Shown one piece after another: positions 43,727-60,900 of a stretch of DNA of 64,000 bases. A model generated the notes under the pieces. That model was not told the origin of the DNA. It saw only the letters and a list, made by a program, of their open reading frames with translations, and did no database searches. The position numbers were made by a program, and so were the translations under genes. Source of the DNA: Rhodothermales bacterium (GTDB lineage: Bacteria; Bacteroidota; Rhodothermia; Rhodothermales; Bin80); contig CBDBMQ010000033.1 in NCBI GenBank assembly GCA_965207565.1, positions 4,325 to 68,324 on the forward strand, written 5' to 3'. Every line of letters begins with the position of its first letter. Positions within the stretch are counted from its first letter, which is position 1.

Positions 43727-44287
43727 ATGACGTCTCGACGGAAACTGGTTGGGCTGACAGCACCAAGTGGTGCCGGAAAATCCAGCCTTGCACAACGGGT
43801 GCTGGAAGAGTTCCCGTCTATGCAATTGTCTGTATCTGCGACGACAAGGCCTCCGCGCTCCTATGAACAACATGGCCGGGAGTATTATTTCGTTTCCGTG
43901 CCGGAATTTGAGCGCCTGATCGCCGAAGAGGCCCTCCTCGAATACGAGGAGGTGTATCCCGGGCGTTTCTATGGGACACCACTCTCTGCACTCGCAGAGT
44001 CCGATGCCCCTCTCTTGCTGGATATTGACGTTAAGGGAGCCGCCCGGGTTCGCTCTGCTTACGGCGGGTTTTTTATCTTCGTCGCTCCGCCATCAGAATC
44101 TGAACTGAAAAACCGCCTGAACAACCGGGGCACAGAATCCATAGAGACACTTGATCTGCGACTGCAAAGAGCAAAACTTGAACTTGCCTATGCTGATCAA
44201 TTTGATGCACTTGTGGTAAACGATTCTCTTGATAGAGCTGCAATGGAAGCGATTGCACTAATTAAGGACTACCTTCACAATGAGTGA
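43727..44287 (+). CDS. gmk: guanylate kinase
   Basis: 186 aa. LTAPSGAGKSSL, SATTRPPRSYEQHGREYYFVS. Confidence 0.95.
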   Translation: MTSRRKLVGLTAPSGAGKSSLAQRVLEEFPSMQLSVSATTRPPRSYEQHGREYYFVSVPEFERLIAEEALLEYEEVYPGRFYGTPLSALAESDAPLLLDIDVKGAARVRSAYGGFFIFVAPPSESELKNRLNNRGTESIETLDLRLQRAKLELAYADQFDALVVNDSLDRAAMEAIALIKDYLHNE

Positions 44288-45494
44288 ATCAAGCCGAATT
44301 GCGGAACTGCATGGCAAGCGTCTTCTTCTTGGCGTGACTGGAAGCATTGCTGCATACAAGGCTGCCGAATTGATTCGACGGCTGCGAAAACTTGGCACCG
44401 AAGTGCAGGTTCTGGCAACGCAGGGGGCATCCCAGTTTATCTCACCAACAACCCTGGCAACCCTGTCCGGTCGGAGCGTGCTCACAGATCTGTTCGATGG
44501 GGCAGAAGAGGATACTTGGACCAAGCACATCACTCTGGGACACTGGGCAGACCTCTTCGTGATTGCACCTACGACCGCCCAGACTCTGGCAAAATTGGCG
44601 AATGGGTTTTCGGACAATATGCTGACCGCAACCGCTCTGGCGGCCCGCTGCCCAATACTGGTGTGTCCGGCCATGGATCATGATATGTACATGCATCCTG
44701 CTGTCCGCTTGAACCTGAAACGCCTCCAGGGATTCGGCTACCATGTCCTGCCTCCTGGTTATGGAGAACTGGCCAGTGGGCTCGTCGGGTTGGGGCGTCT
44801 CCCGGATCCAGAAGATATTCTCGAACGGATTGCGTCTCTTTTGCCTGACGAGTTGCGTGGTAAGCATGCTCTGGTTACTGCCGGCCCTACGCGTGAGCCT
44901 ATCGATCCCGTTCGAGTTCTGACCAACCATTCGACCGGTACGATGGGCTTTGCTCTTGCAAAAGATCTTGTCCGGCGCGGAGCACAGGTAACGCTGGTAA
45001 CCGGTCCTACGTTGTTAAACACCCCTGACGGGGTGCGACGCATTGATATCACCACGAGCGCAGAAATGCTTGAGGCGGTCCTGGCCCATAAGGATGCGGA
45101 TTTCATCTTTATGGCGGCGGCTGTGGCGGATTATGCACCGGTTGAGTCTCATCCTTCAAAAATCAAGAAGCAGGAGGATCAGCTTACACTCCGACTGCAT
45201 CGCACCTCTGATATCCTCGCACGACTGGGGAAACGGCGTCGTAATGGTCAAGTCCTGGTCGGCTTCGCCATGGAAACGGAAAACGGTCTGGTGAATGCCC
45301 GAAAAAAACTCACCGAAAAGAACCTGGACTGGATTGTCCTCAACAACCTGAGCGAAGAAGGTGCCGGCTTCGGTACGGAAACCAATCGCGTAACCCTCAT
45401 CGGGAAAGATGGCTCGTCCTTCCCATTGGAGGTAATGTCGAAACAGGAGGTCGCCACTGCCCTTTTGGACCGAATCTTGACTGATTGTGCATAA
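44280..45494 (+). CDS. coaBC: bifunctional phosphopantothenoylcysteine decarboxylase/synthetase
   Basis: 404 aa. Flavoprotein domain LLLGVTGSIAAYKA, PAMDHDMY, and the CoaB domain VTAGPTREPIDPVRVLTNHSTG. Confidence 0.95.
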   Translation: MSESSRIAELHGKRLLLGVTGSIAAYKAAELIRRLRKLGTEVQVLATQGASQFISPTTLATLSGRSVLTDLFDGAEEDTWTKHITLGHWADLFVIAPTTAQTLAKLANGFSDNMLTATALAARCPILVCPAMDHDMYMHPAVRLNLKRLQGFGYHVLPPGYGELASGLVGLGRLPDPEDILERIASLLPDELRGKHALVTAGPTREPIDPVRVLTNHSTGTMGFALAKDLVRRGAQVTLVTGPTLLNTPDGVRRIDITTSAEMLEAVLAHKDADFIFMAAAVADYAPVESHPSKIKKQEDQLTLRLHRTSDILARLGKRRRNGQVLVGFAMETENGLVNARKKLTEKNLDWIVLNNLSEEGAGFGTETNRVTLIGKDGSSFPLEVMSKQEVATALLDRILTDCA

Positions 45495-45584
45495 CGTGTG
45501 GGTAACTGCAGGGATCTTGTCTGATTGCGCGGTAATTTTAGTCTCCTGCGGGTACAACCATTTTAGCTTTGGTTCTATCCCTAT

Positions 45585-46286
45585 TTGTGTGCAATGATCT
45601 CGGCACTTCACCACCTTAAGGACAGTCTTTCAGCGGAGGCAAGCCTACACGGCCCGCTTATTCCGTTAGAGCCCAAAAAAAGGTTCGCACAGAAGATCAT
45701 GGATCTGGTTGACCCTCAGAACCCCGTACATCAGGTCCTATCCCTGGATGCGCTTCGGGACTATGTAGACTCCTCTGTTCTCATTCCGATTGACGCACAG
45801 CGTACGCATGCCGTTTTTGGCGAGGGAAACCCCCAGGCAAACATCATGCTCATCGGCGAGGCACCTGGAGCGGACGAAGATCAGCAAGGCCGACCTTTTG
45901 TCGGCCGGGCCGGTCAACTGCTTGACAAAATGATCGCGGCAATCCACCTATCCAGGGATGAGATCTTTATTGCAAACATTCTCAAATCCCGCCCTCCCGG
46001 AAACCGTGATCCGAAACATGACGAAATTGCTGCCCATCTGCCTGTTCTCTACCGGCAAATGTCCCTCATTCAACCTAAATTTATCCTCTGTCTGGGGCGG
46101 ATTGCAAGTCAGACCTTGCTTGGGACCAATGCCCCTCTTGGAAAACTACGAGGGCAAGCTCACCCCTACTATGGAAGCACGCTGCTCGCCACCTATCACC
46201 CGGCGGCTCTTTTACGAAATCAGAACTGGAAGCGGCCAGCCTGGGAAGACTTGAAACTCCTACAACAACTCTACTCGGCTCTCTAA
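45585..46286 (+). CDS. uracil-DNA glycosylase, family 4
   Basis: [41 protein letters not shown] and HPAALLRN. The start could also be the ATG at 45594. Confidence 0.9.
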
Positions 46287-46290
46287 TACC

Positions 46291-47733
46291 ATGCAAAGCG
46301 AAGCAATCCCCCCTCGAGGCCCCATCCTGGTTCAGAATTTGCAGGATTCCTCGGGGCGTGTTCCTCCCCAGGCTGTTGAGGTTGAGAGGTATGTCCTAGG
46401 AGCCGTGTTGATTGATCCAGAGGCCGTGAGCATTGCAACGGAAATCCTGCCTGCAGATGCCTTCTATTTGCCGAAGCACGCGAACATTTACCGAGCCATC
46501 CTAGATCTTTCCGCCAAGGGGCAACCCATAGATATCATTACGGTTGCCGAGCAGTTGAAAGCAACGAAGAAACTGGATCAGATTGGTGGCATCCCATACC
46601 TGAATGACCTTACTGAACATGTCGCAACTTCTGCAAACACCGAGCACCACGCACGTATCATAAGCCAGAAAGCTCTCTTGCGCAATCTTATTGGAGCAAT
46701 GGGTAGGCGGATCACAGAGGCTTATGATCCGGCAGCCGATGCGTTTGAACTCCTTGACGCGGCAGAAAAGGATCTCTTTTCCATCTCTGAAAGCCAGGTC
46801 CGCAGATCAGCAAAAAACTTAAAAGATGTCATACAGGAAACGGTTGCCCACCTTCAAACCATTGCAGAGCGACCAGAAGGTCTTTCGGGGGTAACCAGCG
46901 GATTTACAGATCTCGACAAATTAACTGGGGGATGGCAGGACTCCGACCTAGTCATCATTGCCGGCCGGCCGTCAATGGGGAAAACTGCGTTTGCTCTGGC
47001 GTGCGCACGTAATGCCGCCTTAGCCTCCCAGAACCCTGTAAGTTGCGCAATTTTCTCCCTGGAAATGAGTGCCAGACAGCTAGCTCAGCGCCTGCTGACC
47101 TCCGAAGCCAAGGTAAATGCCCAGAATGCTCGTACGGGAAAGCTAAGCCAGAATGACCATCACGCTGTCGTGGAGGCTGCTGGGAAATTGGGCCTTGCCC
47201 CGATCTTTATTGATGATTCAGATGGTCTGGGGATTCTGGAATTACGTGCCAAATGCCGCCGACTAAAGTCTGAGCATGATATTGGGCTTGTGCTGGTTGA
47301 TTACCTGCAACTCATGGAGGGGCGAGCCAGTAAGGATAATCGGGAGCAGGAAATCGCAAATATCTCTCGCTCTCTTAAAGGACTTGCAAAAGAGCTTGAA
47401 ATTCCGGTGGTCGCACTCAGTCAGCTGAATCGAAATGCGGAGGACCGAAAAGATAAGCGGCCGCAATTGTCGGACTTACGTGAGAGTGGTGCGATTGAGC
47501 AGGATGCCGATGTAGTCGCATTTATTTATCGCGCATCTTATTACGGCATCGAATCCGATAAAGACAATCAGCCAACCAAAGGGATCGCGGAGATCATTGT
47601 TGGCAAGCACCGAAACGGCCCTACTGGGACCGTCAAGCTCAGCTTTGAGACAGACTTCGCCCGCTTCTCAAATCTCGAAGCATACCGGAGACAGGAGGAC
47701 TATGCCTCCGGCCTCGACGACTGGTCGGTCTGA
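46291..47733 (+). CDS. dnaB: replicative DNA helicase DnaB
   Basis: 480 aa. PPQAVEVERYVLGAVL N-terminal domain, Walker A IIAGRPSMGKTAFAL, LRESGAIEQDADVV. Confidence 0.96.
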   Translation: MQSEAIPPRGPILVQNLQDSSGRVPPQAVEVERYVLGAVLIDPEAVSIATEILPADAFYLPKHANIYRAILDLSAKGQPIDIITVAEQLKATKKLDQIGGIPYLNDLTEHVATSANTEHHARIISQKALLRNLIGAMGRRITEAYDPAADAFELLDAAEKDLFSISESQVRRSAKNLKDVIQETVAHLQTIAERPEGLSGVTSGFTDLDKLTGGWQDSDLVIIAGRPSMGKTAFALACARNAALASQNPVSCAIFSLEMSARQLAQRLLTSEAKVNAQNARTGKLSQNDHHAVVEAAGKLGLAPIFIDDSDGLGILELRAKCRRLKSEHDIGLVLVDYLQLMEGRASKDNREQEIANISRSLKGLAKELEIPVVALSQLNRNAEDRKDKRPQLSDLRESGAIEQDADVVAFIYRASYYGIESDKDNQPTKGIAEIIVGKHRNGPTGTVKLSFETDFARFSNLEAYRRQEDYASGLDDWSV

Positions 47734-47740
47734 TGTAATG

Positions 47741-47811
47741 AGGTGACGGGCGGATTCGAACCGCCGTACAAGGCTTTGCAGGCCTCTGCCTAGCCACTCG
47801 GCCACGTCACC
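47741..47811 (-). tRNA. tRNA-Cys (anticodon GCA)
   Basis: Reverse complement folds as GGTGACG/CGTCACC acceptor, GAGGC-CTGCAAA-GCCTT anticodon arm, GGCGG-TTCGAAT-CCGCC T-arm. Confidence 0.88.
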
Positions 47812-47812
47812 T

Positions 47813-48093
47813 TGGCACGCCCGGCAGGACTCGAACCTGCAACCTGCGGATTCAGGTTTGTGCCGGTTTCCCGACTCCCTGGACTATCTCTTCACCTTTT
47901 TCAGTTATGCCTGAAGGAAGGGGTGGCCGTCTAGTCTCTACACCTTCCCCCACGGGGGCTTGGCTCGGGATTACCGTGAACCTCTGTTCCGTAGGCTTCC
48001 CCGAATTTGACCACTTACTCGCTGGTCGTTTCCAGCCAGCGGCCCGCTTTTGTTGCAGAAGTCCGCTGCTCTATCCAGTTGAGCTACGAGCGC
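47813..48093 (-). tRNA. split tRNA-Arg (anticodon TCT) gene interrupted by a group I intron; exon 1 48093..48057, exon 2 47852..47813 (CCA encoded)
   Basis: The joined exons give GCGCTCG-TA-GCTC-AACTGGATA-GAGC-A-GCGGA-CTTCTAA-TCCGC-AGGTT-GCAGG-TTCGAGT-CCTGC-CGGGCGT-G-CCA. All four stems pair; the acceptor pairs 7/7 including two G.U. Confidence 0.85.
47853..48056 (-). ncRNA. group I intron (IC3-like, 204 nt, no ORF) in the tRNA-Arg(UCU) anticodon loop
   Basis: Inserted after U36 and ends in G. It contains GUCAAAUUCGG, CGAGCCAAGC and GAAGGUGUAGAGACUAGACGGC, which match the Azoarcus tRNA-Ile intron core as I remember it. It also has two GAAA-tetraloop hairpins (CGCUGGCUG-GAAA-CGACCAGCG and GUCG-GAAA-CCGGC). 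Confidence 0.85.
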
Positions 48094-48123
48094 CTGTATG
48101 TAATAGAACTGATATCCGCGCAG

Positions 48124-48197
48124 TCGGGGCGGCCGGATTTGAACCGACGACTTCTGCGTCCCAAACGCAGTGCTCTACCGGGCTGAGCTACGCCCCG
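48124..48197 (-). tRNA. tRNA-Pro (anticodon TGG)
   Basis: CGGGGCG/CGCCCCG acceptor, CTGCG-TTTGGGA-CGCAG anticodon arm, GTCGG-TTCAAAT-CCGGC T-arm. Confidence 0.9.
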
Positions 48198-48208
48198 AAT
48201 CGGATGGT

Positions 48209-48376
48209 CTACGTGACGGCCTTCAATTCCGCCCGAACATCCTCCTGCGGAACCATTTTTTCTCTGAAGCGGAAGCTCCCGTTTGGCTTCTTTTCCGCAA
48301 TAATGAGCTTGGCCATCACTTTTCGCTCTTGACGGCGCTTGAGGACCTTGTCTCCAAACGATTGTTTCTTGGCCAT
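48209..48376 (-). CDS. DUF4295 family small protein
   Basis: Hand-translated 55 aa: MAKKQSFGDKVLKRRQERKVMAKLIIAEKKPNGSFRFREKMVPQEDVRAELKAVT. Sits immediately downstream of rpmG as in the Bacteroidota-type rpmB-rpmG-DUF4295 operon. Below the ORF-track cutoff. Confidence 0.7.
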   Translation of the reverse strand: MAKKQSFGDKVLKRRQERKVMAKLIIAEKKPNGSFRFREKMVPQEDVRAELKAVT

Positions 48377-48378
48377 TT

Positions 48379-48552
48379 TTACTTGATCTCCCTATGCAGT
48401 GTGTGCTTTCGTAGTGTCGAATTGTACTTTTTGAGCTCCAGTCGACCCGACGTGTTGCGCCGGTTCTTGACCGTTGAATACCGGCTTGTGCCCGGAGCCT
48501 CCGTACACTCGAGGATTATTTTTTGTCGAACGTCTTTTCCTTTCCGTGCCAT
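48379..48552 (-). CDS. rpmG: 50S ribosomal protein L33
   Basis: Hand-translated 57 aa: [57 protein letters not shown]. Below the ORF-track cutoff. Confidence 0.92.
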
Positions 48553-48569
48553 GTTACAGCCTTATCTAT

Positions 48570-48806
48570 TTAGACCGAGATGCCTTGCGCCCGCGCTTCA
48601 CGCAATACCGCCTCAACCCCTTTCTTGTTGATGGTCTTGATCGTATTCGCCGAAACTCTCAGCTTCACCCACCGCTTTTGTTCGGGCAGATAAAACCGCT
48701 TTGTCTGCAAATTCACTCCAAATCGCCGACGCGTCTTGTTGTGCGCATGTGAGACATGGTTGCCGGACATAGGCCCTTTGCCATTCAATTGATCTTTACG
48801 TGCCAT
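48570..48806 (-). CDS. rpmB: 50S ribosomal protein L28
   Basis: 78 aa. GKGPMSGNHVSHAHNKTRRRFGVNLQ. Confidence 0.94.
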   Translation of the reverse strand: MARKDQLNGKGPMSGNHVSHAHNKTRRRFGVNLQTKRFYLPEQKRWVKLRVSANTIKTINKKGVEAVLREARAQGISV

Positions 48807-48875
48807 TGGTTTTTGTCCCCTTTCCTGTTTTGGGCGACCGGCTTATATGAAACCATTTACCAAACGGTTCCCGAA

Positions 48876-50105
48876 TCAGAGACCCCGGGCAACTGCCTGG
48901 CTCGGCTCACTCCGTGCTGCGCGCCATGCCGGATATAGCGCGGCGACCAAACACAAACCGAACGAAACCCCCAGGATGAAAACCAGATCCAGGATGTGGA
49001 TCGAAACCGGATAGGATTCAATTACAAAGGATTCCGCCCCCAAGAGAGGTACAAGTTGAAAGTGTTTCTGCAGGAATAGAATCCCAAGCCCCACCACGAA
49101 CCCGGTTCCTGCACCAATCAGCCCGATCATCCCGCCCTGCACGAGGAAAAGTTGCCGAATATCCCTGGAAGTGGCCCCCATCGCCTGCAGAACGCCAATG
49201 TCCCGTTTCTTTTCTACGACAACCATGGTGAGCGACCCTACAATACTGAACGCTGCGACCACGCAGATGAGGATCAGTATTAAGGATGCGCCCCATTTTT
49301 CCAGTCGCATAACATCATAAAGGGAGCGCTGAAGATCATACCAAGTTTGAACCTTCAACCCGCTGGGATTGGAGGCTTCGAGTGTTTGCTTTACCTGCTG
49401 TGCCTGCTCCAGGCTGGTGAGTCGCAATTCGATCCCGGTAACGGCGTCCTTCAGATGAAAAAGATCCTGTGCCTCTTTGATTCCAATAAATACATGCGTG
49501 TTGTCGTAAGTCTCTTCAAGTTTATATAACCCCCGCACCTCAAATTCTTGCACCACTGGCGGAGAAAAGACGCGTGTGAGCATTTGCCCCAGTCCCTGTG
49601 CAGAAAACAGCATTGCCTGGCTGTTCTCGGAGCCTGGAGACAGCCCCAAGCGCTGCCCCAGGCTAAATCCTATCACCATCCCCTGTTCGCTGGTGTCAAA
49701 CTCCCCGGCGACGAGCCCCTCTCCTGTTGTATTCTCCGCCACACCTCGCAGGACCACAACGCGGTTGACTTCCGACTGTGTGACGGTTACGAGGAGAGCT
49801 TTTCCTTCAACGTAGGGATCCGCGCTTAGGACCTGCGGAATCTGTCTGGCTTGACCTGCGATCCTGTTTGCTTCTTCCTGCGACAACCCGCCTCCGGGCT
49901 CCGCGACGATGCGGACATGTGGGTCCATCGAAACGAGCATGTCTCGCACAACATCATAAAACCCATTCATGACGGACAGAACCACGATCAGTGCAGCAAC
50001 ACCGACGGCCACGCCGGTCATAGAAATTCCCGAAATAATCGTAACGAGCGGGATTCGTTGTCGGCTATGCAAGTACCGTCGTGCAATAAACAGCCGATAG
50101 TTCAT
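48876..50105 (-). CDS. LolC/LolE-family (FtsX/MacB-type) ABC transporter permease
   Basis: 409 aa. IARRYLHSRQR N-terminus, periplasmic MacB_PCD-like domain, C-terminal FtsX 3-TM bundle. Confidence 0.88.
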   Translation of the reverse strand: MNYRLFIARRYLHSRQRIPLVTIISGISMTGVAVGVAALIVVLSVMNGFYDVVRDMLVSMDPHVRIVAEPGGGLSQEEANRIAGQARQIPQVLSADPYVEGKALLVTVTQSEVNRVVVLRGVAENTTGEGLVAGEFDTSEQGMVIGFSLGQRLGLSPGSENSQAMLFSAQGLGQMLTRVFSPPVVQEFEVRGLYKLEETYDNTHVFIGIKEAQDLFHLKDAVTGIELRLTSLEQAQQVKQTLEASNPSGLKVQTWYDLQRSLYDVMRLEKWGASLILILICVVAAFSIVGSLTMVVVEKKRDIGVLQAMGATSRDIRQLFLVQGGMIGLIGAGTGFVVGLGILFLQKHFQLVPLLGAESFVIESYPVSIHILDLVFILGVSFGLCLVAALYPAWRAARSEPSQAVARGL

Positions 50106-50184
50106 CCCTGGGCTTCGAGTTTGCTTGTTGTGGTCATACGTTTCAGGCCTAGGCCCAGCGGACCTGTACCTGATTCAGGACAGG

Positions 50185-51282
50185 TTAGACATTGAACCGA
50201 AAAAGAATCACGTCTCCATCTTGAACGACATACTCCTTGCCTTCGGACCGCATAATCCCGGACGCGCGTGCGGCAGCCTCGGAGCCTACGCGAATCAGGT
50301 CTTCTACCTGCACGGTCTCTGCGCGAATGAATCCGCGCTCAAAGTCGCTATGGATTTGTCCTGCTGCCTGTGGAGCACGTGTTCCGATTTTGACGGTCCA
50401 CGCTCGTGTTTCATTTGGTCCATGTGTAAAGAACGTAATAAGATCCAATAATTTATATGCTGTCTGGATCAAGCGTTGCAACCCATTTGCCTGAAGTCCC
50501 TCGCTCACTAGGAAAACGTCTTTTTCTTCCTCCTCCAGTTCTGACAACTGCGCTTCGAAGTCTGCGCTCAGGATTAGGCATTCTGCCTGCTCTCTGGTGG
50601 CAATCTTCTGAACTTGTTCGGCCCAGACATTCCCCTGAGGCAAATCTACCTCCCCCACATTTGCAATATAGAGAATTGGCCTACTAGTTAAGAGGAATAA
50701 CCCCCCAATATAGTGCTGCTCTTTTTTGGAGAGGTCTTTTAAGAGCCGTGCGGGGCTACCCTGCGACAGGTGAGCAACGAGGCGTTCTGCGAATGCGGCC
50801 TTTGCAATCGCGTCTGCATCCCCTCCCTTCGCCGCTCTCTCCCACTTTTCAGCGAAGCGCTCCACCGTATCCAAATCTTTCAATAAGAGCTCTGTATTCA
50901 CGATCTCTATGTCACGCTCTGGATCCACGCTCCCGGCAACATGGGATATCCCGGTGGCATCAAAGCAGCGGACAACATGCACTAACGCATCTACCTGTCG
51001 AATATGCCCCAGAAATGCATTCCCCAGTCCTTCGCCACGAGATGCGCCAGCAACCAGACCCGCAATATCTACAAATTCTATCGTGGTCGGAATAACTCGT
51101 TCGGATGGGGAAACAGCGACCAGTCGCTCCAGTCGTTCATCCGGGACGGGCACGATTCCTCGATTGGGATCAATGGTGCAAAACGGATAATTCGCCGCAA
51201 CTGCGCCAACCCCACTCAGCGCATTAAACAGTGTGGATTTTCCAATATTGGGTAATCCAACGATACCACAATTGAGGGACAT
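50185..51282 (-). CDS. ychF: ribosome-binding ATPase YchF
   Basis: 365 aa. GIVGLPNIGKSTLFNAL, with a TGS-like C-terminus ending GDVILFRFNV. Confidence 0.96.
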   Translation of the reverse strand: MSLNCGIVGLPNIGKSTLFNALSGVGAVAANYPFCTIDPNRGIVPVPDERLERLVAVSPSERVIPTTIEFVDIAGLVAGASRGEGLGNAFLGHIRQVDALVHVVRCFDATGISHVAGSVDPERDIEIVNTELLLKDLDTVERFAEKWERAAKGGDADAIAKAAFAERLVAHLSQGSPARLLKDLSKKEQHYIGGLFLLTSRPILYIANVGEVDLPQGNVWAEQVQKIATREQAECLILSADFEAQLSELEEEEKDVFLVSEGLQANGLQRLIQTAYKLLDLITFFTHGPNETRAWTVKIGTRAPQAAGQIHSDFERGFIRAETVQVEDLIRVGSEAAARASGIMRSEGKEYVVQDGDVILFRFNV

Positions 51283-51324
51283 TGCCTGGCGACTATCAAA
51301 TTTTTGCTAGAATGCGGGTCATCT

Positions 51325-51351
51325 CCGATCAAATGAGTGATCGGTTTTTTT
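51325..51351 (+). terminator. orphan rho-independent-terminator-like hairpin
   Basis: CCGATCA-aatgag-TGATCGG (7-bp stem) followed by TTTTTTT. No plus-strand gene lies upstream of it. Confidence 0.4.
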
Positions 51352-51629
51352 GCAGAGATGAAGTGTTTAGATCTATTCGCTTATGTACGAGTTCTTTCCG
51401 TCAATCCTGGACCGTTCAGCCCTTATACGTTCACCGTGCAGTGAGGCTCAATAGGTCCTTTCGTTTATGGGCTGGAGGATTCGCCGAACCTTTTGACTTC
51501 TTGCCTACCACATGCCAGAAAATTTCTGCCGTCTCGCCAAAAGCGTCCCACCTCCTAATGGGTACAGCCAAAAAGGCTTGAATCATTGAACTGAAATGAC
51601 GGTCTCCTTTGATATAGAATGAACGCCCA

Positions 51630-52163
51630 TTGCCTTTGGTGTGTAAACAGTATTTCGTTGTACCTGCCGATCAAGTGTTAAAACTATTCCGAAGGACCTG
51701 TGTGTTTGTTTTCCTAACCCTGAGCGGATTAATGGCCTTCGCTCAGTCATCCCACATACAGGCTGGACTAGGAGGATGGCCGGGGGCCGGCATGCAATTC
51801 GTACACGTTCAGGCCCGTAGTATCTATTCGCTAGAGGTTCTTTCTTCCGTTGATACCGAACTATGGAAGGAAAGGACCCCCGTATATGTCTCTGCAGGTG
51901 TTGGGGCGGCACTGAGGCCGCTAGGGATCCTTCGTATGATTGGCCAGGCAAACTACTCCTATGATCTATACTTGGGGGTCCGTTTCGGCCCAGCACTAAC
52001 TTTCCTGCACAAACAAACTCGCGCGGAAAAAAACCGCCAATTCAGTCTCTTCCTAGATCCTTTTCTCCGATATACGCGACCAATTGGGCAACAAACCGCG
52101 TTCATTGAAATCGGGTCACAGCGTCCATCTCTGCGTGCGGGACTCTGGATTCCTCTTAACTAA
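51630..52163 (+). CDS. hypothetical secreted / outer-membrane protein
   Basis: 177-aa ORF with a signal-peptide-like VFVFLTLSGLMAFAQ and alternating beta-strand-like sequence. No family recognised, and the start (TTG) is uncertain. Confidence 0.45.
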   Translation: MPLVCKQYFVVPADQVLKLFRRTCVFVFLTLSGLMAFAQSSHIQAGLGGWPGAGMQFVHVQARSIYSLEVLSSVDTELWKERTPVYVSAGVGAALRPLGILRMIGQANYSYDLYLGVRFGPALTFLHKQTRAEKNRQFSLFLDPFLRYTRPIGQQTAFIEIGSQRPSLRAGLWIPLN

Positions 52164-57949: not shown

Positions 57950-60900
57950 CTAATACCGGAGCGATCCCCGCACATTCACTCCGATGTCTCCCAGCACAGC
58001 TGCGCGGCCGTGCGCCAAACCAAAGACCGAGAACGTCAACCATTCCGATGGATGGAGTTCGCCACCCAACCGGTACATCACTCCCTGATGCAACTGAGTC
58101 ACCCCCATGACGGACCGGGCGGTGCCATCTTTCCACGGAACGCCGTATCCCAACTCCAACTCGGTCCGCTGCGCGTCTGCCCCGAGCGGCACCGCATCCA
58201 AGATCGTCTGCTGACCGTACATCGACATCCCCTGACCCCGTCCCCACGATGGCCGCACACGCACCATCAACCCCTCCGACCGACTGCCCACTTGCAGGGA
58301 CCCCGAGAGTCCCCACTCTGTGAATCCGTCGGCCGTATGCATCACCAGCCCCTGTGTCCGCACATCCCCCTTCAGGCGCCATGCCGGATAATCAACCCGG
58401 ATCCCCCCGCCAAACTCCAACCCCACCCCCGTCTCCGCACTTCCCCCATCGCTCCGCACATTCGCCTCCACAAATGGACGAAGCCCGTCGCTGATCTTTA
58501 CATTCGCCTCCACACCTGCCCGGACCCGGTACACCTCTGCCGTCACCTCATGATCCGTTATCTCTGCATCCGTCACCAGGACATCTCCATGGTAGTTCAG
58601 TCCGATCGTGCCCGTTGACACCAATCTCCCTCGAACCCCCATTGCTCCAAACCTGGACACCAGATCCCCTTTCAACTCCAGCACCTCTGCCTGCCCGCGA
58701 CCCGCGCCTGCGCTCAACCATACATCCCAGCCTGCACGCGCATACGACACATACGGATAGACGCCCGTCAACCCTGCGGTGATCTCTCCAGACTGCTGCA
58801 CCACCTCAAACGATCCCTCTCCCTGACTGTGGGCCAGAAGTACCCCCGCCAGCCAACCTCCCCGCCAGCGGTAGTCCGCCCCCAGCATCCCCGTGGTCAC
58901 CTCTCCACGGAGCGTCAACGCATCGTCATCCCGTCCATTGAACTGACGGAATGCTCCCCGTCCCCAGACGCTGAACGATCCACTGTACGAAGTCGCAGAC
59001 ATGCGGCAACCCGCCAATAGTTCGCCCAGGGACGGATCCCATGAGGAGGCCGAGTACCAGAGCCTGGCCATCTCTGCGCGGTCGGCCGCCCCACACGCGG
59101 CACCATCCGCCCCGGAGCGGAACCGCTCCCCCAATGCCTCCACCACCTGCACCGACGACGTCCGTACAAACCGCGCCGCATACGCCTCCAGTACCTCTTC
59201 ACTCACCGTGGTGGACTCCTGGATCGTCGCCACCCCCACCGCCTTCGCAATCTCTGCATGCTTCGACGACTCCAGATGCACCGTGAACGTCTCCTCGCGC
59301 CAATCCAATCCGTCTTTCAAGAGCGGTACCGCAATCATCGCTTCCACTGTTCCCGGTGCCATCGTGACCACCCCCGAGGAGGCTTCATAGTCTTCACCTG
59401 CCTTGGCGGTCCCATCGCGCGTCCGGTATGCTGCCGAGATCATCTGACGCTGCGGATGCGACAGCAAGACCCGGAACCGGACCATGCCCTCTTCTTCCAG
59501 CACCAGCGCATCCTCCACCCGAAGGATCGCGCTCGCACCATCATCATCCAGGATCGTCCCCGTCCCCGTTTCACGTGCAATGATGGCATTGCGAGGCTTT
59601 GACAGGGTCACCATAAACGACTCATGCTCTTCCGGGAATTCATCATTGATCACCTCAATCTCAATCACGCCCCGGGTTGCACCCGGATCAAAGATTACAA
59701 TCCCCCGCGAGGTCACATAGTCCAGGCCCGCCTCTGCCGTGCCAGCCGTGCTTGTATATTGCACCATCACCACCTGATCCACGGGACGACTGAGTTCAAT
59801 GGGCAGTTGGATCGCCTCTGCATGTTCCAATGCCTGTTCATCGTAGAGGGTGATCGTGAGCGGCCCCGGCCGCTCATCGTTGTCCATGATCGTCACCGTG
59901 ATATCTGTTGTCACCCCGTCATAGCCCCCGCCCGATGCTGTAACATTTAAGCCGACCGTTTCATCTGCATAATCCTCGTCGTCCTCGACTGCCGTTAAGG
60001 TCACGGTCTTAGGGGTATTCCAATCCGCGGCCGTAAACGTGAGCGAGGGTTTGTCTAATGTCAGATCTGTTCCCGCGTGCCCGGTGAAAGTGAGCGTCAC
60101 GGGGCCCGGTGGCGATGCGGATAGATGAACCAGGAGCGGGCGCGTACCCCCTTCTTCCATCTGCACTGTCTCCGGGGCCACGAGCGCCGCCGCATCGTTG
60201 TCCGTGATCGTCACTGTGATATCGGTCGTCACCCCGGCGTGGCCGCCTCCAGATGCTGTGAGTGTCAATGTTTCTGTATCGTCCGCAAAATCATCATCCT
60301 CTGCCGCCGTTAAGGTCACCGTCTTGGGAGTGTCCCAATCCGAGGTTGTAAACACGAGCGAAGGTTTGTCCAATGTTAGGTCCATGTGTCCGGTAAAGGT
60401 CACCGTCACCGTGCCCGATGGCTGGGCAGATAGACGAACCATCAGCGGATGTGTCCCTCCTTCTTCCATCCTCACATCCTTAGCAACCACGATCCCCGGC
60501 GTATCGTTATCCGCGATGGTTACCGATATTGTTTCTGAGATCCCGGTGTAGTCGACACTACCACTTGCTGTCAAGGTGACCTCTACCTGATCATTTACAA
60601 CATCCGCATCGTCCGCGGCGCGCAAGCTCACCTGCTGCGTCTCATTCCAGTTTTCTGGAGTAAAGACTTGAGTGATCGGAATCAGGGCCAAGTCGGTTCC
60701 TGAAGGCCAGGTCATCATCACTTTGACCTCGCCCAATGGCTCCGAGGTCAGCGAGATCCCGAACGAGGTCTCTCCCCCCTCCGTGACCGATACAGACGGG
60801 GGTGCGTTCACCCCTGCCTCATCGTCGTCGGTGATCGTTATCTCCACCGGCTCCCCCTTGGCCAGACCGGACGGCAGGACACCAAGTGCCACCGTGAAGG

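Follow-up and report, generated by a model that had tools for sequence, protein, structure and literature searches.

A split tRNA-Arg(UCU) gene in a Rhodothermales contig

The stretch of DNA analysed here (the window) comprises 64,000 nucleotides (nt) of contig CBDBMQ010000033.1 from a Rhodothermales bacterium. Its minus strand carries, between the genes for tRNA-Pro and tRNA-Cys, a transfer RNA (tRNA) gene, tRNA-Arg(UCU), whose two halves are separated by an insert of 204 nt. The evidence presented below supports the assignment of this insert to the Azoarcus-like (IC3-type) group I introns; it splits the tRNA gene after U36 and has no open reading frame (ORF). The three parts of the gene are as follows.

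48057..48093, minus strand: 5′ exon of tRNA-Arg(UCU), 37 nt (read off the sequence; ARAGORN on the joined exons and in intron mode)
47853..48056, minus strand: group I intron of the Azoarcus type, 204 nt, without an ORF (RF00028, alignment, covariation, ORF check)
47813..47852, minus strand: 3′ exon of tRNA-Arg(UCU), 40 nt (read off the sequence; ARAGORN)

The 5′ exon (48093..48057) has the sequence GCGCUCGUAGCUCAACUGGAUAGAGCAGCGGACUUCU and ends in GCGGACUUCU. It contains the 5′ strand of the acceptor stem, the D arm with A20, the anticodon-stem strand GCGGA, C32 and U33, and the anticodon U34 C35 U36, with U36, at 48057, forming the base before the 5′ splice site (U-1). The 3′ exon (47852..47813) has the sequence AAUCCGCAGGUUGCAGGUUCGAGUCCUGCCGGGCGUGCCA, that is, AAUCCGC...GCCA, and supplies A37 and A38, the anticodon-stem strand UCCGC, the variable loop, the T arm, the 3′ strand of the acceptor stem, a discriminator G and an encoded CCA. 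The intron itself starts with G (GCAACAAAAGCGGG) and ends with G (CACAAACCUG); this terminal G, the omega-G, lies at 47853 and occupies an invariant column (G210) of the alignment described below.

When the exons are joined, the resulting 77 nt fold into a cloverleaf, identified by ARAGORN as tRNA-Arg(tct), with A20 in the D loop, an encoded CCA and the anticodon loop CUUCU-AA, the intron following U36. When introns are allowed, ARAGORN returns tRNA-Arg(tct) i(38,204) in place, flanked by tRNA-Pro(tgg) and tRNA-Cys(gca). In default mode ARAGORN reported only the two neighbouring tRNAs and not the split gene, as did the Rfam tRNA model, and the default ARAGORN run called no second tRNA-Arg(UCU) within the 64-kb window. 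Nine genes nearby, rpmB and dnaB among them, contain 155 Arg codons, of which 19 are AGA or AGG, which suggests that a tRNA-Arg(UCU) is needed. A preliminary description, made from the letters of the window alone, had placed the tRNA halves at 48093..48057 and 47852..47813 on the minus strand, 204 nt apart and between tRNA-Cys and tRNA-Pro, correctly to the base. It had also anticipated the canonical cloverleaf with the loop CUUCUAA, which ARAGORN reproduces, and the failure of default annotation to find the gene; the tRNA search with intron detection and the RF00028 search that it proposed both returned the element.

Identity and fold of the intron

The Rfam model RF00028 (Intron_gpI) matched 47860..48069 on the minus strand over its full length (model positions 1–253) with a score of 57.9 bits, against a gathering threshold of 50, and an E value of 4.4e-12 for the whole window, which is far beyond chance. 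To place the helices, the sequence of the Azoarcus olearius intron and its curated consensus structure (SS_cons) were taken from supplement 1 of Williams 2020 (bioRxiv 10.1101/2020.01.27.920355). A structure running from P1 to P9, with a P3/P7 pseudoknot and 59 pairs, was drawn by hand on the window sequence and examined in a MAFFT alignment (A1) of 31 introns: that of the window, that of A. olearius and 29 related introns from public genomes. Only loci with U-1 and omega-G entered A1; the junctions given by ARAGORN were a few bases off at several loci outside the Rhodothermales (L021, L066) and at the plasmid locus L321. The elements of the structure are listed below.

48043..48059, minus strand: P1 hairpin, in which exon UCU and intron gc (48055..48059) pair with the guide GCGGG (48043..48047) across the loop AACAAAA (covariation)
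48020..48041, minus strand: P2 stem with the GAAA tetraloop L2 at 48029..48032 (alignment, covariation)
48009..48014, minus strand: 5′ strand of P3, GUGGUC, then J3/4 AAA at 48006..48008 (covariation)
47965..48004, minus strand: P4 (UCGGGG/UCCCGA), J4/5 AA, P5 (CC/GG) and P5a (GAAC/GUUC) (alignment, covariation)
47943..47963, minus strand: P6 (CC/GG) and P6a (CCCC/GGGG) (Rfam alignment, covariation)
47932..47938, minus strand: 5′ strand of P7, G(A)GACUA, with a bulged A (invariant in 31 of 31 introns; SS_cons of Williams 2020)
47923..47928, minus strand: 3′ strand of P3, GGCCAC, closing the P3/P7 pseudoknot (covariation)
47893..47922, minus strand: P8 hairpin (alignment, covariation)
47881..47886, minus strand: 3′ strand of P7, UAGUCC, with J8/7 GAAGAGA before it (alignment, covariation)
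47855..47879, minus strand: P9.0 (GG/CC, 2 base pairs) around P9 (GUCGG/CCGGC), with the GAAA tetraloop L9 at 47867..47870 (covariation)

Across A1, 89.0% of the 1702 cells hold standard pairs, compared with 30.6–42.7% when the 3′ partners are slid by one to three columns, and 32 of the 59 pairs show changes at both positions. For four of five measures, including the percentage paired and the covariation score, none of 500 shuffled alignments matched the observed value; on the fifth, the number of further pair types, 33 of the 500 reached it. P1, P3, P5, P6, P7 and P9.0 are paired in 100% of cells and P9 in 98.7%, and the lower values for the outer part of P2, P5a, P6a and distal P8 reflect misalignment by MAFFT of hairpins that vary in length. 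The six Rhodothermales introns taken alone are paired in 96.3% of cells, with six pairs changed on both sides, and the ribozyme fold is accordingly under selection in the Rhodothermales lineage itself.

The features expected at the splice sites and in the core are correspondingly constant. The U-1.G wobble, omega-G, J3/4 AAA, P7 and the GAAA loops of L2 and L9 are invariant in all 31 introns, and J8/7 is mostly so. In P1, the U36.G wobble at the 5′ splice site occurs in 31 of 31 introns, and the two exon pairs beside it covary with the anticodon of the host tRNA: C-G and A-U with CAU, U-G and C-G with UCU, and C-G and C-G with CCU. Double-sided changes occur in three of the six P3 pairs and in the two pairs of P9.0, and the register of P5a is fixed by a change from A-U to G-C in one Rhodothermales relative (L073). 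By its alignment to Azoarcus, P7 is the predicted guanosine-binding helix, and the internal loop of P5, CCUACG/CACGG, resembles a tetraloop receptor. The intron has no homing endonuclease gene: the longest ORFs that overlap it on the sense strand encode 33 and 27 amino acids, and an antisense ORF of 141 amino acids has no match in Pfam.

All structural details offered in the preliminary description can be recognized in this model. Three strings that it ascribed to the Azoarcus intron, GUCAAAUUCGG, CGAGCCAAGC and GAAGGUGUAGAGACUAGACGGC, all occur in the A. olearius sequence and align with it column for column. Its insertion after U36, terminal G, GAAA loops at L2-like and L9-like positions and P1 between GCGGG and UCU plus gc with a U36.G wobble all correspond to invariant or fully paired positions of A1, the absence of a homing endonuclease ORF was borne out, and its P3–P7 core proved foldable by covariance, with P3 fully paired with three covarying pairs and P7 invariant. 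Two other pairings were tried and dropped. The P1 register of the Rfam alignment sets U-1 opposite A and includes two non-standard pairs, and was replaced by UCUgc/GCGGG, which is fully paired and keeps U.G in every intron; a P5a register taken from the MAFFT alignment with Azoarcus was replaced by GAAC/GUUC, which fits the substitutions in L073.

The identification as a group I intron thus rests on the RF00028 score, on colinearity with the Azoarcus intron, on covariation of the core helices, including those of the pseudoknot, and on conservation at the orthologous locus in five relatives.

Comparison with characterized introns

The closest characterized counterpart is the IC3 intron in tRNA-Ile(CAU) of Azoarcus sp. 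BH72 (A. olearius), which has the same insertion point, after nt 36. The Azoarcus intron is 205 nt long, compared with 204 nt in the window, and is followed by a 3′ exon of 40 nt (PMC13168695), the length also found here. The two introns are colinear over their full length, with 65% identity over the aligned part, and have in common P1, P2 with a GAAA loop, P3, P4, P5, P6/6a, P7, P8, P9.0 and a short P9 with a GAAA loop. Both have a single P2 and neither has P2.1, P5abc or an ORF. They are identical in J3/4, P7 and most of J8/7, and both end in the 3′ tail CACAAACC-G. They differ in the host tRNA, which is Arg(UCU) in the window and Ile2(CAU) in Azoarcus, and in the guide, which is GCGGG in the window, where it fits UCU, and AUGUG in Azoarcus. 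P5 carries CCUACG/CACGG where Azoarcus has a CCUAAG/UAUGG receptor, and in P8 the window clade, unlike Azoarcus, has a degenerate form of the receptor motif. Finally, the host belongs to Rhodothermota in the case of the window and to Betaproteobacteria in that of Azoarcus.

The intron in tRNA-Arg(CCU) of alphaproteobacteria (Agrobacterium tumefaciens; BbgpI of Bartonella bacilliformis) is a classical representative of the type that Williams 2020 names Arg.5Ug, and it shares with the window intron a host tRNA for arginine, the site after U36, U-1 and omega-G, the IC3 class and a host gene that annotation misses. It differs in its anticodon, CCU, its length of about 220–250 nt and its extended P9 ending in ...GGUAUG, whereas the P9 of the window intron is of the short Azoarcus type. 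The cyanobacterial tRNA-Leu intron resembles the window intron in having an IC3 core, a position in the anticodon loop, long vertical inheritance and, going by the references listed in PMC3984707, exons that are held by the anticodon stem. Unlike the window intron, it lies after U34, has different peripheral elements and is spread through a lineage that is far wider and older.

Conservation and descent within Rhodothermales

Orthologous loci were recognized by the shared rpmB–rpmG–DUF4295–tRNA neighbourhood (48209..48806). Positions 44000..52000 of the window are 92.2% identical over 4.7 kb to OZ220707.1 (L094), the complete chromosome of a Rhodothermales metagenome-assembled genome (MAG); for three further MAGs of Rhodothermales or Rhodothermaceae (L065, L096 and L073), the identity is 70–84%. 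A fifth, L006, gives short matches only (68–76%), around the tRNA and ribosomal-protein genes. All five carriers (OZ220707.1, JAJEFL010000160.1, OZ241874.1, MPNB01000001.1 and CAZKFR010000058.1) show the order rpmB–rpmG–DUF4295–tRNA-Pro–split tRNA-Arg(UCU)–tRNA-Cys, with the intron unannotated, and in all five RF00028 scores above threshold, at 58.6–69.3 bits.

In the order L094, L065, L096, L073 and L006, identity to the window intron over the alignment is 98, 94, 94, 87 and 76% (by BLAST 97.6, 94.5, 93.0 and 88.0%, with fragments only for L006). The corresponding values are 98, 98, 93, 88 and 84% for ribosomal protein L33, and 100 (a partial sequence), 97, 94, 87 and 73% for L28. Because intron identity declines in the same order as that of the flanking proteins, the pattern fits vertical inheritance of the intron within the Rhodothermales clade. 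In a neighbour-joining tree, the six Rhodothermales introns form one clade. The window therefore adds one member to a set in which sister species carry the same element, with differences at the sequence level only.

A metagenome scan for the spliced junction, GCGGACTTCTAATCCGCAGGTT, returned, among the matches listed, four contigs (L151, L202, L211 and L217) with an uninterrupted, syntenic tRNA-Arg(UCU). The Rfam tRNA model scores these alleles at 71–74 bits, no intron was detected in them, and their L33 and L28 proteins are 76–82% and 65–73% identical to those of the window. As judged from these sequences, the intron is limited to a clade, and more distant relatives are uninterrupted. The farthest carrier, L006, and the nearest non-carrier among the matches listed, L217, lie at about equal distance from the window, which suggests that the intron was gained near that depth or that some losses have occurred. 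The combination of a clade-limited, syntenic distribution and uninterrupted alleles in distant relatives makes this a clean case for dating an intron gain.

Host range and novelty of the site

In two reviews (PMC4033280, PMC3984707), the group I introns listed for bacterial tRNAs are confined to cyanobacteria, alphaproteobacteria and betaproteobacteria. Williams 2020 recognizes four classical types, Leu.3Ug, Arg.5Ug, fMet.2Ug and Ile2.5Ug, all of class IC3, and the same preprint, covering about 80,000 genomes, maps 5292 split tRNA genes and brings the site types to 21, in many phyla (bioRxiv 10.1101/2020.01.27.920355). In that nomenclature the window intron, which follows the fifth nt of the anticodon loop (nt 36) and has U-1 and omega-G, is of the Arg.5Ug type; both seed examples of this type in supplement 1 of the preprint have the anticodon CCU. 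In the literature searched, we found no description of a group I intron in tRNA-Arg(UCU) or in a tRNA of Rhodothermota, Bacteroidota or Rhodothermus.

To place the window intron among sequenced genomes, a 21-mer from its core, AAGGTGTAGAGACTAGACGGC, was scanned against 185,579 species-representative genomes and matched at least 120 of them, from many phyla. Of the 120 loci among the matches listed, ARAGORN in intron mode placed 15 in tRNA-Arg(tct), and 13 of these 15 have clean U-1 and omega-G; the carriers in this set are five Rhodothermales, Vibrio, Enterovibrio, Chloroflexota, Fimbriimonas and Marinomonas. Most of these other introns in the same isoacceptor occupy the same site with U-1 and omega-G. 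The copies from Vibrio and Enterovibrio (L009, L066, L079, L095) differ in having 235–237 nt and a long P9, and those from Chloroflexota (L082, L090) are just 58–60% identical to the window intron. The copies from Fimbriimonas (L028) and Marinomonas (L113) lie after U34 and are of the Arg.3Ug type of Williams 2020. Among the matches listed, the intron also lies in tRNAs for Thr(cgt), Leu(caa), Leu(aag), Lys(ttt), Ser, Phe, Val and Gly, with some ARAGORN junctions and anticodons unreliable, and the phyla represented include Chloroflexota, Patescibacteria, Omnitrophota, Planctomycetota, Bacillota, Acidobacteriota and others.

The preliminary description had called the combination of site and lineage unusual. 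Its assignment to an FCB-type genome was right, Rhodothermales belonging to Rhodothermota in the FCB group, and the case does fall outside the four classical ones; among public genomes, however, such a host is not unusual, given the 15 tRNA-Arg(UCU) loci and five Rhodothermales carriers just described. The window case is thus undescribed in the literature searched, yet neither rare nor unexpected in sequence data. The intron is an ordinary new member of a known family rather than a new kind, and near-identical copies are already present in public assemblies.

Functional interpretation and alternatives

Taken together, these observations make it very probable that the window contains a functional, small, ORF-less Azoarcus-type (IC3) group I intron of 204 nt between U36 and A37 of a Rhodothermales tRNA-Arg(UCU). 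Several points weigh against this interpretation. That the window intron splices, or does so unaided, is deduced from its family. P2 of the window contains a C.A mismatch at a pair that is C-G in L094. The minimum free energy (MFE) fold of the intron, which recovers P4, P5, P5a, P6a, P8, P9 and P9.0, is not unusually stable (z = -1.03), a weak guide for a pseudoknotted ribozyme. A second intact tRNA-Arg(UCU) elsewhere in the genome, if present, would relax selection on the split copy.

The remaining points concern tertiary docking. In the Azoarcus crystal structure, the GAAA loops of L2 and L9 reportedly dock into 11-nt CCUAAG/UAUGG receptors in P8 and P5, respectively. The canonical 11-nt GAAA receptor in P8 is missing from the window clade: the window, L094, L065 and L096 have CCUUCC/AAAGG where most relatives have the CCUAAG/UAUGG motif, and the same four introns have lost one base of the basal P8 stem (C-CC versus CACC). 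L073 retains the basal stem CACC/GGUG, and L006 retains both that stem and a receptor-like CCUACG/UAGGG. Given this altered receptor, docking of L2 may differ from that in Azoarcus or be weaker. Because the L2 GAAA loop is invariant despite the change in P8, some docking contact is probably kept.

One alternative is that the 204-nt insert arose by chance or by misassembly between tRNA-like fragments, for which the sole argument is that the gene escapes default tRNA finders. The Rfam E value of 4e-12, the recurrence of the same split gene with the same neighbours in five independent assemblies and the covariation refute it, and we give it practically no weight. Another alternative is that the intron has decayed and lost the ability to splice, leaving this tRNA-Arg(UCU) copy as a pseudogene and AGA and AGG to be read by another tRNA. 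The visible genome amounts to 64 kb, and a second gene could lie elsewhere; the C.A mismatch in P2, the degenerate P8 receptor motif and an Rfam score just 8 bits over the cut-off could likewise be signs of decay. Decay is nevertheless hard to reconcile with a catalytic core in which all elements are invariant and with helices that are maintained by changes on both sides, in the Rhodothermales clade as well as across the 31 introns. Moreover, the exons are nearly unchanged in six genomes, against flanking proteins that fall to 48–84% identity in the farthest of them, and low Rfam scores are to be expected for bacterial tRNA introns, since bacterial sequences are absent from the Rfam seed (Williams 2020). 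We therefore regard a dead remnant as very improbable.

It is also conceivable that the intron is removed in vivo but is not autonomous, requiring a host protein (a chaperone or a maturase-like factor) or unusual conditions such as high salt or temperature, the L2–P8 contact being altered. The replacement of CCUAAG/UAUGG by CCUUCC/AAAGG and the base lost from the P8 stem would be in keeping with such a dependence, and protein cofactors are noted for many group I introns in vivo (PMC7717549). However, the Azoarcus intron, which is built in the same way and is 65% identical, self-splices efficiently (PMC13168695), and the invariant L2 GAAA argues for a retained docking contact. A strict dependence on such help thus appears unlikely, and a functional Azoarcus-type intron remains our preferred explanation.

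By analogy with the family, from which we infer catalysis, the order of the steps and any assistance by proteins in vivo, splicing of this functional intron would proceed as follows. The split gene would be transcribed together with tRNA-Pro and tRNA-Cys, and the intron would fold into P1–P9 with the P3/P7 pseudoknot, braced by the L2 and L9 GAAA tetraloops. The guide GCGGG would pair with UCU of the anticodon and with bases 1 and 2 of the intron, placing U36 in the U.G wobble, and a free guanosine bound in P7 would attack after U36. Omega-G (47853) would then replace the guanosine, and the freed 3′-OH of U36 would attack after G47853, joining the exons and releasing a linear intron and a 77-nt tRNA-Arg(UCU) that would read AGA and AGG. 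Reading the sequence revealed no P10, that is, no pairing of the 3′ exon (AAU) with bases 5′ of the guide sequence, so that alignment of the exons would have to rely on the anticodon stem; the exons would be held mainly by its five base pairs, GCGGA/UCCGC. Going by a title cited in PMC3984707, alignment of exons by the anticodon stem has been reported for the Anabaena pre-tRNA-Leu.

Possible origin and significance

The exon context of the insertion site, GAC-U-UCU followed by AAUCC in Rhodothermales, differs from that of betaproteobacterial tRNA-Ile2 hosts, GAC-U-CAU followed by AAUCC, only at positions 34–35. Such near-identical anticodon arms, together with the common 3′ tail of the introns, fit transposition between tRNA-Ile2 and tRNA-Arg(UCU) genes, and we treat an origin from tRNA-Ile2 as a lead. 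In 1999, Paquin et al. reportedly proposed transposition between tRNA genes for the tRNA-Arg(CCU) intron. In the neighbour-joining tree, tRNA-Ile2 and tRNA-Arg(CCU) introns could not be told apart as the source of the Rhodothermales intron.

A fuller scenario joins several of these elements. The split gene would be the sole tRNA-Arg(UCU) of the clade, so that decoding of AGA (and of AGG, unless a separate tRNA-Arg(CCU) exists) would depend on a vertically inherited ribozyme present since the ancestor of the clade; the ribozyme would descend from an Azoarcus-type intron of tRNA-Ile2(CAU) that entered the gene by reverse splicing and whose guide was then retargeted. We put this combination forward tentatively, as one that may well not hold as a whole. 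If the split gene is indeed the sole copy, the tRNA-Leu intron of cyanobacteria would be joined by an independent second example of a tRNA intron that is both long-lived and, in effect, essential.

The finding leaves the current understanding of these introns unchanged, and its value lies in a corrected annotation gap and in a set of Azoarcus-like variants. The intron hides a needed tRNA gene: genomes of the clade appear to lack tRNA-Arg(UCU), which would mislead analyses of tRNA complement and codon usage. With its 204 nt, it also provides a compact, naturally occurring variant of the small group I ribozyme that has been studied best, with a retargeted guide and an altered P8 receptor for L2, and the six natural sequences could be used in work on folding and tetraloop–receptor docking.

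Matches to the intron core on plasmids and viral contigs

The core of the window intron matches about 1256 plasmids of enterobacteria, Acinetobacter and Aeromonas, with about 91% identity over 46 nt. On Citrobacter freundii pCTX-M3 (NC_004464.2; L321), at about 2385–2683 on the plus strand, the matching stretch reads as a tRNA-Leu(UAA) gene interrupted after U34 by a group I intron, about 221 nt long, that scores 36.8 bits with RF00028, under the cut-off of 50. The PLSDB gene table, from which RNA genes are absent, has no entry for this stretch. The split tRNA adjoins an AAA-ATPase/aac(3)-IId/IS26 resistance block and seems to travel with that module.

The 21-mer also occurs in 80 IMG/VR viral contigs (L241–L320), which may be phages or the flanks of prophages or hosts. 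ARAGORN in intron mode places most of these matches inside tRNA genes: Leu(taa) in 42, Ser(aga) in nine, Met(cat) in seven, Gln in three, Arg(tct) in one (L289), and others. A search of 50,697 GenBank phage records by blastn with the window intron gave no match. According to a 2014 review (PMC3984707), all known phage group I introns lie in protein-coding genes.

Genomic neighbourhood

The genes around the split tRNA that were used above as neighbours or synteny markers are the following.

48570..48806, minus strand: rpmB (L28), upstream synteny marker
48379..48552, minus strand: rpmG (L33), upstream synteny marker
48209..48376, minus strand: DUF4295-like gene of 55 amino acids, upstream synteny marker
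48123..48197, minus strand: tRNA-Pro(UGG), 29 nt upstream of tRNA-Arg and in the same orientation (ARAGORN, Rfam)
47740..47811, minus strand: tRNA-Cys(GCA), beginning one base past the CCA of tRNA-Arg (ARAGORN, Rfam)

The tRNA cluster is very compact, follows rpmB–rpmG–DUF4295 directly and is convergent with the 3′ end of dnaB. The 55-amino-acid ORF past rpmG scores 25.8 bits with the Pfam model DUF4295, just under the cut-off of 27, and has no match in NCBIfam; it is conserved and syntenic in all related loci, with 48–96% amino acid identity. Elsewhere in the window, against a background of about 52% GC, positions 1–2000 have a GC content of 44%, and positions 58001–60000 have one of 61% with a GC skew of -0.29.

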